DNA of 49,912 bases from a phage. Position 1 is the first letter of the stretch. Each line of letters begins with the position of its first letter. The stretch lies in sequence record OZ335956.1. One strand, 5' to 3'. The notes beneath the pieces were generated by a model. That model saw nothing but the letters and a program-made list of their open reading frames with translations, searched no databases and had not been told where the DNA came from. The position numbers and the translations under genes were made by a program. Of this stretch, positions 7,522 through 49,873 are shown in pieces.

Positions 7522-7932
7522 ATGAATCAAGAAACTTTAATTGCAGTTGTTGAGCAGATGCGAAAGCTGGTTCCGGCACTTCGTAAGGTTCCAGATGAAA
7601 CGCTTTATGCATGGGTAGAAATGGCTGAGCTATTCGTCTGCCATAAGACCTTCAAAGATGCATACGTCAAAGCGCTTGCTCTTTATGCATTGCATCTTGC
7701 CTTCCTTGATGGCGCGCTAAAAGGTGAAGATGAAGATCTGGAGTCTTACTCACGACGCGTTACGTCATTCTCCCTGAGTGGTGAATTTAGCCAGACTTTC
7801 GGAGAGGTTACGAAGAACCAGTCAGGGAACGTGATGCTTTCAACGCCGTGGGGTAAGATGTTTGAACAGCTTAAAGCGCGCCGCCGTGGTCGATTTGCAT
7901 TAATGACCGGACTCCGTGGAGGATGCCACTAA
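7522..7932 (+). CDS. head-tail connector / head completion protein (putative)
   Basis: 136-aa ORF with RBS GGAGGT; gene order. Confidence 0.4.
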   Translation: MNQETLIAVVEQMRKLVPALRKVPDETLYAWVEMAELFVCHKTFKDAYVKALALYALHLAFLDGALKGEDEDLESYSRRVTSFSLSGEFSQTFGEVTKNQSGNVMLSTPWGKMFEQLKARRRGRFALMTGLRGGCH

Positions 7933-29071: not shown

Positions 29072-29484
29072 TTACAGACAAAGGTGATTATTTAGAGTTT
29101 TACGAACGAGATCCCAGCGACACACGAAAGGAGGACGCGCACCAGGTAGATTGCGTGTCCTGGCTGAAATACAATTTCCCACATCTTCTATTTTGGCACA
29201 CTGTAAATGAAGGTGAAAAAACAATCACCTCGGCGCTCAGGGATGAGCAGGCTGGGTTACTTAAAGGAGTGTCAGACTTCGTTATCCTGATTGGTGTAAA
29301 CTCACGCTACCCGTTCGCAGCTATCGAACTCAAGCGGGTTAATAAGTCCGGCAAGGGAAAGGCGTCACCAGTCAGCGATAAGCAAAAGGAATTTCTCCGC
29401 AATGTTCGTCAACGAGGTGGATTTGCTGCGGTTGCATATGGATTGGAGCAATTCAAGATCGCAATTTACGAAATGATGAAATAG
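29068..29484 (+). CDS. VRR-NUC domain nuclease (putative)
   Basis: 138 aa; GVSDFVIL...AIELKR matches the D..ExK core of VRR-NUC; RBS GGAGGA. Confidence 0.65.
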   Translation: MITDKGDYLEFYERDPSDTRKEDAHQVDCVSWLKYNFPHLLFWHTVNEGEKTITSALRDEQAGLLKGVSDFVILIGVNSRYPFAAIELKRVNKSGKGKASPVSDKQKEFLRNVRQRGGFAAVAYGLEQFKIAIYEMMK

Positions 29485-29496
29485 CACTTTTTGTTA
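29482..29496. promoter_or_regulatory. palindromic motif site TAGCA-N5-TGTTA
   Basis: tagcactttttgtta; includes stop codon of preceding gene. Confidence 0.55.
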
Positions 29497-29551
29497 AAAC
29501 TGCCGGAATGGAATCTGGCATTATTACCTCACCGAAACGAGAGGACTAAAA

Positions 29552-38607: not shown

Positions 38608-38672
38608 TTTCCTGTTCCTGATGTGTATCTCGTTTCGATGAGGTAATTATGCCAAATCACACCGATCGAGTT

Positions 38673-39377
38673 TTAACAAAAAGTGCTATTTGCGATCGCT
38701 TTGAAAAATCCCCTGGGTGATAGCGATCGTATCAGCTTGGTCTTTGCAGACTTGCCGCCCAGCTTGTTCTGCTGCGCAGAGTACCCGTCAGGCAGATTTA
38801 CTGGTTTTCTCTCCGGCATGACAAAGTCATCCGAGGTCCACAGGCACGTCTTCTTCGGGTAAGCATCGCGCGGCGCAATATACATCGGGAACCAGGGGTG
38901 TACGTCATTCTCCGGTAGATAGCCGCCATACTCCCAGGGGTCGAAAGTGTGGTCAGCTTTACGCCAGGCAGATGAAAGAACGCTCACCGGATTCTCAATG
39001 ATGTAAGTCACGCCCAGGCTATCGCCAATGTTCGCAGCAATCCGGGCGGTGGCAACAGCTTTCTCCTGGAATAGCGGATCACGTTCACGCTTGCTGGCAA
39101 AATGACGAGCGCCGCTAACAGCCAGGTCAGTGCACGGCGGGAATGCCATAATGAAATCCGGCTTGCCATACACACCCGCGATCGCATCTCGCTCGAACTT
39201 CTCACCAATGAAGACGTTCACATACTCAATATTCGGATGCTCCACCCGGGCATTGTGCTTTGCATAATCTCCGTGATCGGCTCCGTCAAAGTTGAAGCAC
39301 ATCACCTTATAGCCTTGCTTTGCCAGTTCATGACCAGCCAGGCCGGAACCGTCGAATAGTGACCAGATTAATTTCAT
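38673..39377 (-). CDS. compact DNA (cytosine-5)-methyltransferase-like protein (putative)
   Basis: 234 aa; motif I-like LFDGSGLAG, motif IV-like FPPCTDLAVSG, motif VI-like IENPVS. Confidence 0.45.
   Translation of the reverse strand: MKLIWSLFDGSGLAGHELAKQGYKVMCFNFDGADHGDYAKHNARVEHPNIEYVNVFIGEKFERDAIAGVYGKPDFIMAFPPCTDLAVSGARHFASKRERDPLFQEKAVATARIAANIGDSLGVTYIIENPVSVLSSAWRKADHTFDPWEYGGYLPENDVHPWFPMYIAPRDAYPKKTCLWTSDDFVMPERKPVNLPDGYSAQQNKLGGKSAKTKLIRSLSPRGFFKAIANSTFC
38674..38688. promoter_or_regulatory. palindromic motif site
   Basis: taacaaaaagtgcta. Confidence 0.55.
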
Positions 39378-40754: not shown

Positions 40755-41015
40755 ATGAGCAAGATTAAGCATGACGCCCTGAAAGGTATTTTGATGCGAC
40801 TGGAGCCGGGCGAGGCATTCCAGCTTAACCCCGAAACGTTCGGATTCGTAGGCTTCTATCGGCTTGGCCTACAGATGAGTTCTCCAGCCGATGAGCTTGT
40901 CCGGTATGTGCGCAAGCAATTCGGTGTCGAGATGATTAGTCTGGGCAAAGTGCAAGGCATCCAGCTATTTATCTTCAAGCCAAATAAGATTCGTTGCTTC
41001 ACCCTGATGAAATAG
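40755..41015 (+). CDS. hypothetical early protein
   Basis: ATG 40755 with RBS AAGGAGAG; ends in motif site. Confidence 0.5.
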   Translation: MSKIKHDALKGILMRLEPGEAFQLNPETFGFVGFYRLGLQMSSPADELVRYVRKQFGVEMISLGKVQGIQLFIFKPNKIRCFTLMK

Positions 41016-41027
41016 CACTTTTTGTTA
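41013..41027. promoter_or_regulatory. palindromic motif site heading an early module
   Basis: tagcactttttgtta then hairpin GGGATAAC..GTTATCCC enclosing TGGTATAGT. Confidence 0.55.
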
Positions 41028-41086
41028 AAACCGGATCGGGATAACCTGGTATAGTTATCCCATCAACAACGAATGAGGAAGCGAAT

Positions 41087-41283: not shown

Positions 41284-41754
41284 ATGACAACAATCACTGT
41301 ATTCTTGGCGAAAGACGAACTGGACGACGAAATGTCATTCTTCGCGTTTGAGCACAGAACCGGATCGCACTGGCACACTTACAGCCACTACACGGTTATC
41401 TCAATCGAAGCGTACGACGGGGATTTGCTCACTGACAAGCTGAGTGATTTTATTGAAACTGTTAAGACTAGCGAAGGTTGCGAGTGGAAAGAAGATCATG
41501 AAGTTATGCGAATGTACGAGATGATTAATCCGGTTCGCCTTGAGTCGTTCGAGCTTGATCCTGATGTGACTATTAAGGTGAGAAAGCCTGGTGAGTTGTT
41601 GCCAGGGATGCGTGTGCTGACTGGTTGCACAGGCCGTAAGGTGTGGCGCACGGTATCGAAGGTTCGCCAGCGTTCAGAAACATGCTATAGCTTATTCTTT
41701 GAAGATGGTTGGAATGAGATGGCTGGTAGCGAAGTGAAGTACCTCACCAAATAG
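41284..41754 (+). CDS. hypothetical early protein
   Basis: 156 aa, RBS GGAGG. Confidence 0.55.
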   Translation: MTTITVFLAKDELDDEMSFFAFEHRTGSHWHTYSHYTVISIEAYDGDLLTDKLSDFIETVKTSEGCEWKEDHEVMRMYEMINPVRLESFELDPDVTIKVRKPGELLPGMRVLTGCTGRKVWRTVSKVRQRSETCYSLFFEDGWNEMAGSEVKYLTK

Positions 41755-41766
41755 CACGAATTGTTA
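41752..41766. promoter_or_regulatory. palindromic motif site heading an early module
   Basis: tagcacgaattgtta then hairpin GGGGTA..TACCCC enclosing TGATATAGT. Confidence 0.55.
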
Positions 41767-41832
41767 AAACCGGATCGGGGTATCTTGATATAGTTACCCC
41801 ATCGAAACGAGATACCAATCAGAGGAATCACC

Positions 41833-46911: not shown

Positions 46912-47484
46912 ATGAAAACAGCTATCATTTTAAACGGCGCGCCGGGCGCTGGTAAGGACACTATCGGCGCAATCCTGGCTGACATTTACGATCACGTAGC
47001 TTTGCGCAGCTTCAAAGAGCCGATGTTTGAGATTGCTCGGGCAATACTTGGTGAAACTAACTACGAGTATTTCATGTTCTTGTATGAGGACCGTCGATAC
47101 AAAGAAGAGCCAGCATCTATCCTGAACGGTAAAAGCCCACGCCAGTTTATGATCTGGATTAGCGAAGAGGTAATCAAGCCACAGTTCGGCAATCGCTTCT
47201 TCGGTATGCGAGCGGAAAGTAAGGTGAAAGAGTCGTACTCCCTTTCGGTATTTACTGACGGTGGATTCAAAGATGAGATCTTGCAAATGATTGAAGGCGA
47301 TATCCAGGTAAAGCTATGTCGAATCCATCGCAACGGTTGCAACTTCGATAATGACAGTCGCGATTATATCTACCTGGATGATATGATCGGGGTCAACGGT
47401 TATCAGGAATGTGATTTCTTCTCTGTTGAGGGTCATCCTGAAATTACCGCTCAGCACATAGCCGCCACATTCATCAATAAATAG
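46912..47484 (+). CDS. P-loop nucleotide or polynucleotide kinase (putative)
   Basis: Walker A GAPGAGKDT near the N-terminus; RBS GGGAG. Confidence 0.6.
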   Translation: MKTAIILNGAPGAGKDTIGAILADIYDHVALRSFKEPMFEIARAILGETNYEYFMFLYEDRRYKEEPASILNGKSPRQFMIWISEEVIKPQFGNRFFGMRAESKVKESYSLSVFTDGGFKDEILQMIEGDIQVKLCRIHRNGCNFDNDSRDYIYLDDMIGVNGYQECDFFSVEGHPEITAQHIAATFINK

Positions 47485-47496
47485 CACGAATTGCTA
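47482..47496. promoter_or_regulatory. palindromic motif site, perfect, heading an early module
   Basis: tagcacgaattgcta followed by TGATATAGT. Confidence 0.55.
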
Positions 47497-47556
47497 AAGC
47501 GTCGGTGGGGTGATTTGATATAGTTACCTCATCGACAACGAAGAGAGAAAATCGAA

Positions 47557-48110: not shown

Positions 48111-48340
48111 TGTTCGGTTTAAGTGAAGCGGAATGGAATGTAGTAAAGCGTGCGGCTAAAGAACTAAATAAATTCGTCAGTGGCATGAAGAAAGAAGACC
48201 GTAAAAACGACAAGATCATGATTGACGTGATTTCTACTCATCACAAAAAGGTCGAGCTACTAATTGACCGTTACAAGTTTGTATGGACCGCCGGGTATAT
48301 TGCCGGGCGCGTAGGCAACAAAGAAGGGGATTACGAGTAA
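48110..48340 (+). CDS. hypothetical early protein
   Basis: 76 aa, RBS AAGGTGA. Confidence 0.5.
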   Translation: MFGLSEAEWNVVKRAAKELNKFVSGMKKEDRKNDKIMIDVISTHHKKVELLIDRYKFVWTAGYIAGRVGNKEGDYE

Positions 48341-48543
48341 TGGATAATTTACCAAAGAAAGGCAATCAGGTTCGATGCATCACTTCACGCAATGGTGATG
48401 CTTTCTCGGCGGGATGTTTGTACGACGTTGAAAAAGTCAGTAAAGCTAAGAGACTCGTATATGTGTACGGAGATGATGGAAACATGCATGAGATTGATTA
48501 CCCGCAGGATATGAGTAAGGGTCAGTTTGAAATTAATGATTGA
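48340..48543 (+). CDS. hypothetical early protein
   Basis: ATG 48340 with RBS GAAGGGGA; 67 aa. Confidence 0.5.
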   Translation: MDNLPKKGNQVRCITSRNGDAFSAGCLYDVEKVSKAKRLVYVYGDDGNMHEIDYPQDMSKGQFEIND

Positions 48544-48569
48544 CCTACATCCCTGAGCGGTGATAGTAT
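48540..48569 (+). promoter_or_regulatory. sigma70-like promoter
   Basis: TTGACC, 18-nt spacer, TAGTAT; -35 overlaps the stop of the preceding ORF. Confidence 0.45.
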
Positions 48570-48707
48570 TAATCCCGTAGACAGACGAGGCGCAACGAAG
48601 CGCAACGCGTGAGACGATTCTCACTCTTCCAGCTAACAAGCTCGGTTGCATAGTGGTTAAGCAACGCCGCAGACCCGTAAGCGGCAACAATTCAAGAGGA
48701 TTGCATA

Positions 48708-48869
48708 ATGCAAAACACTAAAGACGAATCAGTCAAAATTGAAATTAAAGTAACTCGCAACGGCAAAACCACTCGTTATAAGAAACGTTTGAATCCGGGC
48801 GAGGCTGTTATTGGTCGCATTTCTGGCGTTATGATTAAGGCGCAGGAAGATGAAGCGATTCAAAGTTAA
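48708..48869 (+). CDS. small hypothetical protein (53 aa, below track cutoff)
   Basis: ATG 48708 with RBS AAGAGGA downstream of a structured ~140-nt leader. Confidence 0.4.
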   Translation: MQNTKDESVKIEIKVTRNGKTTRYKKRLNPGEAVIGRISGVMIKAQEDEAIQS

Positions 48870-49035
48870 ATTAATCATTCGAAAGATGGGGATGTTTTGC
48901 CAGTCGTGCAAGCAATCTTTCGAAACTGAATTATCAGCAACCAGTCAGGAAGAGGCCATCACGAAAGCTAAGAAACTTTCTGGAGCCAATCTTGACACTC
49001 ACAAAATAAACATTGAATTAATAAAGGAGATTTAA
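48850..49035 (+). CDS. hypothetical protein (start uncertain)
   Basis: 61-aa ORF overlapping previous small ORF; contains CxxC pair; alternative ATG at 48886. Confidence 0.35.
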   Translation: MKRFKVKLIIRKMGMFCQSCKQSFETELSATSQEEAITKAKKLSGANLDTHKINIELIKEI

Positions 49036-49036
49036 T

Positions 49037-49264
49037 ATGACCATTTTTTTATCGATTCTTGCTGGTGTCGTTATTTTTGGTGCTGGTTTGTTTGCTGGCT
49101 TCGCACTTGTTGCGGCCGCAATTGCGATGGACGCGAAGGATAAGACTGGCGTATGGCTGACCTACTCACCTAAGAAGGACCAATGGGAAATGTTTGGCGA
49201 CTTTGCTCACTGCTACTCTAAAGCTCAGACCCACCCTAAAGGAATTAAGCGACGATTGTCGTGA
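49037..49264 (+). CDS. small membrane protein
   Basis: RBS AAGGAGA; N-terminal transmembrane helix (IFLSILAGVVIFGAGLFAGFALVAAAIA). Confidence 0.5.
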   Translation: MTIFLSILAGVVIFGAGLFAGFALVAAAIAMDAKDKTGVWLTYSPKKDQWEMFGDFAHCYSKAQTHPKGIKRRLS

Positions 49265-49271
49265 TAAACAC

Positions 49272-49297
49272 TAACCCGCTTCGGCGGGTTTTTTTAT
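49272..49297 (+). terminator. rho-independent terminator
   Basis: CCCGCTTCGGCGGG hairpin followed by T8. Confidence 0.65.
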
Positions 49298-49315
49298 GCC
49301 TGCAATATGGTAAAA

Positions 49316-49330
49316 TAGCACTAAATGTTA
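49316..49330. promoter_or_regulatory. palindromic motif site
   Basis: tagcactaaatgtta directly upstream of terminase small subunit RBS. Confidence 0.5.
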
Positions 49331-49348
49331 AACAAAGAGGATGTATTT

Positions 49349-49873
49349 ATGAGTGAACCTAAGAATGCTCCCGTAGTCCAGGGAGGTAATTTCAAAGAGC
49401 TATACAAGAAAAAGTTCGGCACTGTTCTTGCGAAGAACCGGGCAATGACGCCTGAGCAATTATTCGATCTATCAGTGAAGTACTTTGAATGGGCCGAAGA
49501 TAATGCGATTAAGGCGTCTGAGTCTGCCAGCTTCCAGGGTGGCGTTTACGAGTCACTTGTTCATAAACCTCGCGTCTTCACCTGGACCGGATACCGACTA
49601 TTCATCGGCGCAAGCGAGGCCGCGATCATTAAATGGAAGCGCGAGGAGGAATACAGTGAGGTTATGGAGTTCGTGGAATCCGTAATCAACGAGCAAAAAT
49701 TCCAACTTGCCGCCAACGGTGTTATTAACGCCTCCTTTATCGGTAAGGATTTAGGGATCGATAAGCCAGCTTCAATCAATATCGAAAACTCGGCAGCTTC
49801 CGCGTCGACCGCCGTCGCCACTACTGAGGACGCAATGAAAGAGGCAGTAAACAGCATTCTTGATATGCTTTAA
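49349..49873 (+). CDS. terminase small subunit (putative)
   Basis: ATG 49349 with RBS AAAGAGGA; 174 aa; immediately upstream of large terminase when the window is circularised. Confidence 0.55.
   Translation: MSEPKNAPVVQGGNFKELYKKKFGTVLAKNRAMTPEQLFDLSVKYFEWAEDNAIKASESASFQGGVYESLVHKPRVFTWTGYRLFIGASEAAIIKWKREEEYSEVMEFVESVINEQKFQLAANGVINASFIGKDLGIDKPASINIENSAASASTAVATTEDAMKEAVNSILDML

Follow-up and report, generated by a model that had tools for sequence, protein, structure and literature searches.

We describe here a structured RNA element encoded shortly upstream of the small terminase gene terS in a phage genome (sequence record OZ335956.1; the whole stretch of 49,912 nucleotides (nt) that was analyzed is referred to below as the window). 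The element consists of a promoter followed by the 5' untranslated leader of a short transcription unit, which is made up of the leader, three small open reading frames (ORFs) and a terminator at 49273-49297. The leader fills a 164-nt gap between an ORF at 48340-48543 (orf58 of phage T1) and an ORF at 48708-48869 (T1 orf57), approximately 640 bp upstream of terS. In blastn comparisons, the 1 kb around the leader matched Escherichia phage UP30 at 99.9% identity, and T1 together with around 60 other Tunavirus genomes at 92-93%; judged by its sequence, the window is a T1-like phage (Tunavirus). We find that the leader is a new RNA motif, though its general kind, that of phage structured leaders or small RNAs, is familiar, and that it is specific to the Drexlerviridae. 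As for its function, we tentatively favor a cis-acting, probably processed leader of this short early transcription unit.

In the window taken alone, neither the promoter nor the fold stands out. The sigma70-type promoter (48540-48569, + strand) consists of TTGACC at 48540-48545, an 18-nt spacer and TAGTAT at 48564-48569, with an extended -10 TG at 48561-48562; it scored 9/12 with the TG in a promoter scan, and its -35 hexamer overlaps the TGA stop codon of the upstream ORF. The region contains 10 promoter-like sites against 7.4 ± 2.8 in shuffled sequences, so that the promoter of the window is by itself not beyond chance. Similarly, the fold predicted for the single window is only 1.5-1.9 standard deviations better than those of shuffled sequences (z -1.5 to -1.9). 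Considering that neither the promoter count nor the fold score is significant alone, the case for the element rests on comparison with relatives.

For this comparison, we used the window and the regions upstream of terS from 25 further Drexlerviridae, which together cover at least 12 genera (Tunavirus, Badaguanvirus, Sertoctavirus, Vilniusvirus, Nouzillyvirus, Eclunavirus, Webervirus, Warwickvirus, Hanrivervirus, Tlsvirus, Rogunavirus, Veterinaerplatzvirus and other Braunvirinae, and Kyungwonvirus). In all 26 loci, the module was found in an unannotated gap, 2 to 3 small ORFs upstream of terS, and its parts follow one another in a universal order: a sigma70 promoter, 5-6 nt, a single-stranded 5' motif, a first hairpin (HP1), the sequence AACG and a second hairpin (HP2). 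Two further hairpins (HP3 and HP4) are present in most genera. The promoter had already been reported, at these positions, in an earlier sequence-only reading of this DNA, and it is conserved in register throughout the 26 loci, with the -10 hexamer ending 5-6 nt before the conserved motif. In the relatives it takes the form TTGACn, 17-18 nt, TAnnnT, frequently with an extended -10 TG, and within Tunavirus the hexamers are constant and the spacer variable. Inside the spacer we also observed the word CTGAnnGG, which is conserved in most genera (window positions 48553-48560; loci L037, L034, L048, L050 and others) and which is retained in the Braunvirinae but shifted approximately 7 nt upstream, adjoining the -35 hexamer. 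As promoter spacers are normally free to vary, this word may be a protein-binding site.

A covariance model was built of the core of the element (the 5' motif, HP1, the linker and HP2). In the window, this model gave a single match, at 48576-48624, with a score of 57.6 bits against 8.5 bits for the runner-up, and it found one copy per locus in all 26 Drexlerviridae, including 8 that were outside the training set. No matches were found in 0.46 Mb of unrelated metagenome loci (80 loci screened), and in 0.76 Mb of pattern-selected viral loci the only matches were in two Drexlerviridae contigs. With sensitive blastn settings, the gap was 95-99% identical within Tunavirus, compared to 92-93% for the surrounding 1 kb, and weak homologues of the gap were also picked up in other genera. 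Scans of IMG/VR with exact patterns (CCGYAGACCCGTAAGCGG, CGTAGACAGAAGAGGC and TTTACATAAGAGNGG) yielded for the most part either Tunavirus contigs that were already known or random matches, and added only 2 informative loci, both near-identical to known Tempevirinae; in a scan of a genome collection with the pattern GAGGCGCN{3,8}GCGCAACG, the titles among the matches listed were mostly those of high-GC organisms; and a locus search with the 67-aa upstream ORF reached Tunavirus only.

The core starts with the 5' motif CGUAGACAGACGAG (48576-48589; this and all following parts lie on the + strand). This motif is single-stranded and near-invariant across genera, occurs once in the window and lies at a fixed distance from the -10 hexamer, such that the predicted 5' end of the transcript falls on its first bases. 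Across genera it has a CGUAGACAGAAGAG-like form, with CGUUUACAUAAGAG in the Tempevirinae. RNAduplex found no consistent pairing partner for it in the rest of the leader, the partners returned being weak and inconsistent. A reading of its AAGAGG as a mimic of the Shine-Dalgarno (SD) sequence was rejected, as the Tempevirinae and 12469I have GAGC at that place. The motif is followed by HP1 (48590-48603), with the stem GCGC/GCGC and the variable loop AACGAA, by the linker AACG(C) (48604-48608), in which AA is invariant across the aligned representatives, and by HP2 (48609-48624), with the stem GUGAGA/UCUCAC and the loop CGAU. RNAalifold extends HP1 by pairing the C of the linker with the G of GAG. 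The direct repeat GCGCAACG that the sequence-only reading had pointed out here does occur, at 48590-48597 and 48600-48607; however, it is not conserved even in T1 (GCGCAACT..GCGCAACG), and we consider it incidental because it is made up of the palindromic 4-bp stem of HP1 and part of the freely varying loop.

Beyond the core, a variable spacer (48625-48644), which contains a small, non-conserved hairpin AGC..GCU (48631-48642) and a conserved UCG right before HP3, separates HP2 from HP3; between genera this spacer differs in sequence and in length, from 19 to more than 140 nt. HP3 (48645-48665) has the stem GUUGC/GCAAC and a conserved, D-loop-like loop AUAGUGGUUAA, which across genera reads AUAGUGGUAA or AUUGUGAAA. 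HP4 (48666-48685) has the stem GCCGC/GCGGC and a 10-nt loop, AGACCCGUAA, whose last bases are an invariant CGUAA. It is followed by the linker AACAAUUCA and the SD sequence of orf57 (48686-48707), part of which is covered, according to the fold prediction, by a small hairpin CAAUUC/GGAUUG (48688-48703). HP2, HP3 and HP4 had been noted from the letters alone and lie where they had been placed; the universal part as a unit, that is, the single-stranded 5' motif with HP1 and HP2, had not been included.

The stems are supported by covariation. In an unguided MAFFT alignment of 19 representatives, 83.5% of the cells of HP1 and HP2 were paired, as opposed to 21-46% when the partners were slid, and 9 of the 10 pairs had changes on both sides, with a covariation score of 0.53 against at most 0.12 in the controls. 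For HP1, all 4 pairs were changed on both sides and 97% of the cells were paired; for HP2, 5 of 6 pairs showed compensatory changes. A MAFFT alignment of the block with HP3 and HP4 mis-registered stems of differing loop length and was replaced by a hand alignment of 12 sequences with N padding. In this alignment, which was fitted to the structure, HP3 and HP4 were 100% paired and 9 of 11 pairs were compensatory (5/6 in HP3 and 4/5 in HP4, the latter including changes from C-G to U.G and U-A). When applied to an unguided alignment of five complete leaders, RNAalifold predicted the same four hairpins. By eye, no covariation was seen between the HP2 loop and the UCG before HP3, for kissing of the HP3 and HP4 loops, or for pairing of AACG with CGUAA. 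The comparison of folding and covariation across relatives, which had been proposed as a check on the first reading, gives four co-varying stems and a core structure that is kept in the Drexlerviridae examined.

The strand on which the RNA is made could also be read from these stems. All wobble pairs are of the G.U type when read on the + strand; they were seen in at least 7 sequences (for example, in HP1 of HazelMika, P818, CS01 and haarsle, and in HP4 of NBD2 and L008), and no stem needs an A.C pair. Combined with the promoter in register, this speaks for the + strand transcript. Among 14 distinct Tunavirus sequences, nucleotide diversity (pi) was 0.031 in the element and 0.15-0.27, or 5-9 times as much, at the third codon positions of the flanking ORFs. 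The sites that do vary within Tunavirus are in the promoter spacer, at one position of the 5' motif, in the HP1 loop (48596-48600, the most variable sites of the element) and at the base after HP2, while the stretch 48638-48687, which runs from the last part of the spacer through HP3 and HP4 to the second base of the linker, is invariant in the 14 sequences. The element is under strong purifying selection. The only Tunavirus copy with a damaged element was that of Shigella phage vB_SsoS_008 (L033, 1395-1520), in which HP2 reads GUGCGA..UCUCAC, the HP3 loop is altered and the 3' strand of HP4 is changed from GCGGC to AUAAC; this reflects either relaxed selection in that isolate or sequence errors.

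A protein-coding gene, on either strand, was considered and rejected, as the lengths of the HP1 loop shift by 1-2 nt between close relatives (TTAG, ATAGA, AACGAA). Since the loops carry indels, and since the substitutions are compensatory rather than codon-periodic, the gap is not protein-coding, as the sequence-only reading had held, and the first ATG with a ribosome-binding site (RBS) is indeed the one at 48708. The antisense coding sequence (CDS) gp18 of ESCO41, which covers the element, is probably spurious. More generally, we observed CDSs in public records that are placed over the leader or over the RNAs that follow it in relatives (L036 1667-1855 on the - strand, L049 908-1117, L174 360-591 and L039 1892-2149): apart from the antisense gp18, these are a CDS that starts inside the leader (GJL01), small CDSs (IMM-001) and a CDS that overlaps a tRNA-Ser gene (HazelMika). 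Such CDSs are probably annotation artefacts.

We then compared the element with what has been described before. A search of positions 48500-48760 against Rfam 15 gave no match at the gathering threshold or at E<=10. In 8 related loci, only transfer RNA (tRNA) cargos were found at or above the gathering score; below it, there was a match of transfer-messenger RNA (tmRNA) type to a cargo in Cronobacter phage CS01, and the other matches lay outside the leader. ARAGORN called 0 tRNA or tmRNA genes in the window. The leader's homologue in T1 is at 7591-7754 of the T1 record, and although that curated record has RBSs and terminators annotated across the region, it has nothing in this gap. The paper that reannotated phage TLS lists only three sigma70 promoters, none of them at the site of the leader, and our literature searches returned no published description of the element and no transcriptomes or small RNAs (sRNAs) of T1-like phages.

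What follows the core differs between lineages. In T1-type phages, IME347, SRT8, P818, Ec_L1 and F61, HP4 is followed by a conserved linker AnnCAUUCA and then by the RBS of the next ORF, and the T1-type leader carries no cargo. In Vilniusvirus, a tRNA-Ser(GCU) begins 8-11 nt past HP4, a spacing also seen for the tRNAs of Nouzillyvirus, Rogunavirus and the Braunvirinae; ESCO41, 12469I and OzMSK have a tRNA-Arg(UCU) that begins in the same place, and ES, IMM-001 and C119 have a tRNA-Arg(CCU) there, in ES and IMM-001 with an extra hairpin between HP4 and the tRNA. As the tRNA begins so soon after HP4 in these genera, RNase P must cut the leader off at this point. In Hanrivervirus and Warwickvirus, the motif CCGUAAG lies inside a 9-bp hairpin; a U5-7 tract comes after it, and the next RBS follows at once. 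In Webervirus KP36 and K62PH164C2 the core stands alone, without HP3 and HP4, and these hairpins are likewise absent from CS01, which carries a tmRNA-like RNA in the slot. With a core that is universal and a continuation that is variable, the universal part comes down to the promoter and a core of approximately 50 nt. Behind the core lies a slot that takes up structured or stable RNA cargo, with the small ORFs coming after the slot. At the tRNA-Ser insertions (L003 1545-1650 and L002 1540-1645), we observed the words ..AAAUUCA before the tRNA and ..CAAUCA after its CCA end, which suggests insertion with a short duplication at the junction of leader and RBS.

In the cis-acting function that we favor, the leader RNA would fold during its synthesis and act on the transcript to which it belongs. 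Through its action, a strongly transcribed stretch that is long, structured and untranslated would stay intact and go on elongating until the ORFs are reached, as opposed to being lost to premature termination or decay, and the leader would set a processing boundary at the AAUUCA linker after HP4, where cleavage would yield a discrete leader RNA of approximately 115-130 nt. The HP3 and HP4 loops and the 5' motif are, from their conservation, most likely contact sites for a protein. In relatives, the same module of promoter and leader drives a stable-RNA cargo (tRNA-Ser, tRNA-Arg or tmRNA-like) or ends in a terminator-like hairpin. Several points weigh against this proposal. The transcription start site, the 3' end and the processing of the leader are predictions; no homology to known antitermination or leader RNAs was found at Rfam E<=10; the T1-type leader has neither a terminator nor a tRNA, and the release of a discrete RNA is unsupported in the window itself. 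The conserved loops and the single-stranded 5' end fit a trans-acting RNA or a ribonucleoprotein (RNP) at least as well. In addition, terS has its own copy of a 21-nt repeat (49313-49333), meaning that read-through from the leader promoter may be unneeded for the late genes, and the disruption of HP2 and HP4 in vB_SsoS_008 speaks for an accessory module that is not strictly essential.

Among known systems, those nearest to the element in its possible mode of action are the promoter-proximal antitermination RNAs (HK022 put, lambda nut and the rrn leader), the leader of the lambda promoter pR' and the stable RNAs that T4 makes together with its tRNAs. The pR' leader (the '6S RNA') lies upstream of the late operon and has a Q-binding element in the promoter spacer. 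The element described here resembles it in having a strong sigma70 promoter, a short untranslated leader and a terminator, followed by packaging and morphogenesis genes, and also in its conserved sequence from +1 to +16 and in the presence of CTGAnnGG in the spacer, where lambda has its Q-binding element. In contrast to lambda, the motif at +1 has no good -10-like pause element (TAGACA, with no T at position 6), three ORFs lie between leader and terminator, and terS has its own upstream repeat; we also know of no Q homologue in T1-like phages. The T4 stable RNAs C and D (species 1 and 2), which are approximately 120-140 nt long and of unknown function, are co-transcribed with the T4 tRNAs and released by tRNA-processing enzymes. 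Like these, the leader is a phage structured RNA that, in relatives, shares a unit with tRNA genes; unlike these, the T1-type leader has no adjoining tRNA and no CCA-like 3' end, and no homology between the two would be expected.

The main rival of a cis-acting leader is that the leader of approximately 115-130 nt is itself the product, that is, a trans-acting sRNA or an RNP scaffold, with its 5' end as a seed and/or with HP3 and HP4 loops that bind or sequester a host or phage protein, while the ORFs merely share its promoter. Both a leader and an sRNA had been suggested in the sequence-only reading, and both are viable given the conserved promoter, the covariation, the strand of the G.U pairs and the selection. 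An sRNA would account for a 5' motif that is fixed at the predicted +1, as in sRNAs with a 5' seed, and for loop sequences that are conserved beyond the needs of folding. The unit of Hanrivervirus and Warwickvirus looks like a classical sRNA gene, with a promoter, approximately 105-125 nt and a hairpin with U5-7, and in the tRNA-bearing genera RNase P must release a discrete RNA. We nevertheless rate an sRNA as rather unlikely: the leaders of T1-type phages, Vilniusvirus and Nouzillyvirus have no terminator or U-tract (in the window, no terminator-like site was found between 48576 and 49273), no complementary target with at least 13/16 matches was found within the window, the seed differs between subfamilies (CGUAGACAGAAGAG versus CGUUUACAUAAGAG), and Webervirus, K62PH164C2 and CS01 lack HP3 and HP4 altogether. 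The same mixture appears when the leader is set beside the enterobacterial 5'-seed sRNAs of Hfq type, such as RybB and OmrA/B. It shares with these its own sigma70 promoter, a single-stranded, conserved 5' end, internal hairpins and a length of approximately 100-130 nt, to which the Tempevirinae unit adds a terminal hairpin and a U-tract; it differs from them in that the window and most genera lack a Rho-independent terminator, in its purine-rich 5' motif, and in that the RNA runs into ORFs.

A bolder proposal, which we consider unlikely, is that the element belongs to a new class of promoter-proximal RNA, with the CGUARAC/CGUAA boxes and the HP3 loop as binding sites for a host or phage protein. 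In one form, a protein-assisted antitermination of the put or rrn kind would reprogram the polymerase or the transcript, and the element would serve as an expression platform for stable-RNA cargo such as tRNAs and tmRNA-like RNA; in the other, the leader itself would be a host-takeover or anti-defence RNP. The put RNA of HK022, lambda nut (boxA/boxB) and the rrn leader are promoter-proximal antitermination RNAs that act in cis, consist of a short single-stranded box with 1-2 small hairpins and precede terminators and long operons. The leader is similarly a promoter-proximal hairpin RNA that would act in cis, with a terminator downstream (49273-49297); it differs from them in the absence of homology (Rfam E<=10) and of a boxA-like GCUCUUUA, in stems that are shorter than those of put, in being single-copy per genome and in its place at the exact predicted 5' end of the transcript. 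To our knowledge, no dependence on N, Q or Nus has been reported for T1. Likenesses to RfaH ops, to boxA, to a LexA box and to a -10-like pause were also judged by eye, and were rejected as too weak (6-7 of 12).

It is also conceivable, but quite improbable, that the leader is an attenuator or is riboswitch-like, with a core that senses either a small ligand or a protein, such as one encoded by the unit, and that switches a lineage-specific platform, by occlusion of the SD in T1 and by a terminator in the Tempevirinae. Riboswitches and attenuators typically combine a conserved 5' part with an expression platform that varies. In T1 the SD lies inside the CAAUUC/GGAUUG hairpin, in Ec_L1 the SD and the AUG are enclosed by CAUUC...GAAUG, and the terminator-like hairpin of the Tempevirinae leaves no room for a promoter before the next ORF. 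Moreover, in the minimum free energy fold of Henu8, the 5' motif is paired with GUAAGACGU, a part of that hairpin, and this pairing would serve as an antiterminator. However, the pairing of 5' and 3' parts is confined to Henu8-type sequences and is unsupported by covariation, and no other lineage has it. The core, with one single strand and two plain hairpins, one of which has a freely varying loop, is small for a ligand pocket, and in many genera tRNA insertions part it from the ORF that it would regulate.

That the leader is a functionless, decaying remnant of a tRNA or tmRNA gene cluster is very improbable. The idea draws on the HP3 loop AUAGUGGUAA, which resembles a tRNA D-loop, on the slot, which holds tRNAs or a tmRNA-like RNA in relatives, and on blastn matches of the leader that reach the edge of the annotated tRNA-Ser in NBD2 and in LF82 phages; the matched part, however, lies upstream of the real tRNA, the tRNA-Ser of NBD2 and LF82 being 3' of the conserved element. 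ARAGORN and the tRNA and tmRNA models of Rfam find nothing in the window, there is no conserved tag-like ORF, since the loop indels shift the frame, and the very strong purifying selection would be unexpected for a pseudogene. A reading of HP4, which has UAA in its loop, as a tmRNA tag was rejected on its own account: no upstream reading frame is kept, loops and stems differ between genera by indels of 1-2 nt, and the putative peptides (..AADP, ..RTP, ..TLEA) are unrelated.

Finally, we regard a DNA-level element, such as a pac or terminase site, a replication origin or a primosome (single-strand initiation) site, as extremely improbable: terS is close by, approximately 640 bp downstream, a CCGTAGAC-like word occurs at the 5' end and again in HP4, and a promoter with hairpins also marks some origins, but the compensatory changes in the stems and G.U pairs on the + strand only are unlike duplex protein-binding sites and point to RNA, and no GC-skew feature was found at the leader. 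The part of the sequence-only reading that placed the stretch in the packaging recognition region is not upheld by the literature either: one paper assigns the pac site of T1-like phages to the untranslated region with which the genome record begins (PMC7718038), and restriction analysis mapped the TLS pac site to a position that has no relation to the leader gap (PMC11447400). On these literature data, the T1-like pac site lies approximately 7.6 kb upstream of the T1 homologue of the leader (PMC7718038, PMC11447400).

The remaining features concern the surroundings of the leader. The window runs from terL to just past terS, and as it opens at the one and closes just after the other, it corresponds to a complete T1-like genome that has been opened at terL. 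The three small ORFs that the leader serves all lie on the + strand and all belong to PHROGs of unknown function: orf57 (48708-48869) encodes 53 aa, the second (48850-49035) 61 aa with a GMxCxxC motif, and the third (49037-49264) 75 aa with one transmembrane segment. The unit is closed before terS by the strong intrinsic terminator at 49273-49297 (+ strand), with a 7-bp stem containing 5 G-C pairs and a T run, whose counterpart is annotated as a terminator in the T1 record; terS itself follows at 49349-49873 (+ strand). The 61-aa ORF was the most widely conserved neighbor across genera; its GMFCQSC fits the GMxCxxC metal-binding motif of HMA (CopZ-like) domains, with a Pfam HMA match that was sub-threshold (E 0.007). 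We also observed a 21-nt repeat, AAATAGCACnnnTTGnTAAAA, at 26 sites in the window against 0.2 expected, for example at 29479-29499, 38671-38691 (- strand), 41010-41030, 41749-41769, 47479-47499 and 49313-49333, the last of these immediately upstream of terS. The repeat is known from phage TLS (PMC11447400) and looks like an extended -10 (TGnTAAAA) preceded by an ATAGCAC box; the leader promoter, with its canonical -35 and -10, is of a different type.

Two of the cargos in relatives had features of their own. In ESCO41 (L036, around 1945-2050), the tRNA-Arg is followed by a second tRNA-like RNA, with acceptor-like strands CUCGGCG/CGCCGAG separated by approximately 115 nt and a T arm GCAGGUUCGAUUCCUGC; it scored 26 bits with the Rfam tRNA model (threshold 29) and was not called by ARAGORN. 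The tmRNA-like cargo of CS01 (L051, around 835-1060) scored 27.4 bits with tmRNA_permuted and 21.9 bits with alpha_tmRNA, both sub-threshold, and contains a tag-like ORF, ANDDLMLMAA, with its stop codon in a hairpin loop and an ..ACCA-like end thereafter. A core of approximately 160 nt of this cargo recurs, at 80-86% identity, in 498 phage records that belong to unrelated families (N4-like, Vi1-like, Jersey-like and others), where it is almost always unannotated; homologues were seen, for example, in loci L469, L465, L504, L488, L507, L522, L453, L436 and L520, and the tag stays a 10-residue ANDx...A(A) despite nucleotide changes (ANDDVVLMAA, ANDEQFLAVA, ANDDLMLAAA, ANDDLMMVAA). ARAGORN calls no tmRNA in cargo of this type, and in a 2014 census of tmRNAs, mycobacteriophages and Bacillus phage G are the only phages listed with ssrA (PMC4131195). 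The leader core was not found beside CS01-type cargo in the other phage families, nor was such cargo found in the window.

T1 belongs to the seven classical T phages, and the Drexlerviridae number close to a thousand sequenced genomes. Transcriptional control is named among the open questions for T1-like phages in the TLS reannotation paper, and a single-copy, covarying RNA that is more conserved than the surrounding proteins, at the boundary between the early small genes and the packaging genes, offers an easily mutated handle on it. The leader also marks the slot in which Drexlerviridae acquire tRNAs and a tmRNA-like RNA. It is of use for annotation, as several records place spurious CDSs over the element, and for engineering, as a strong native cassette of promoter plus leader. 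Should the RNA turn out to bind a host factor or to modify RNA polymerase, this would represent a new mechanism of phage gene control.

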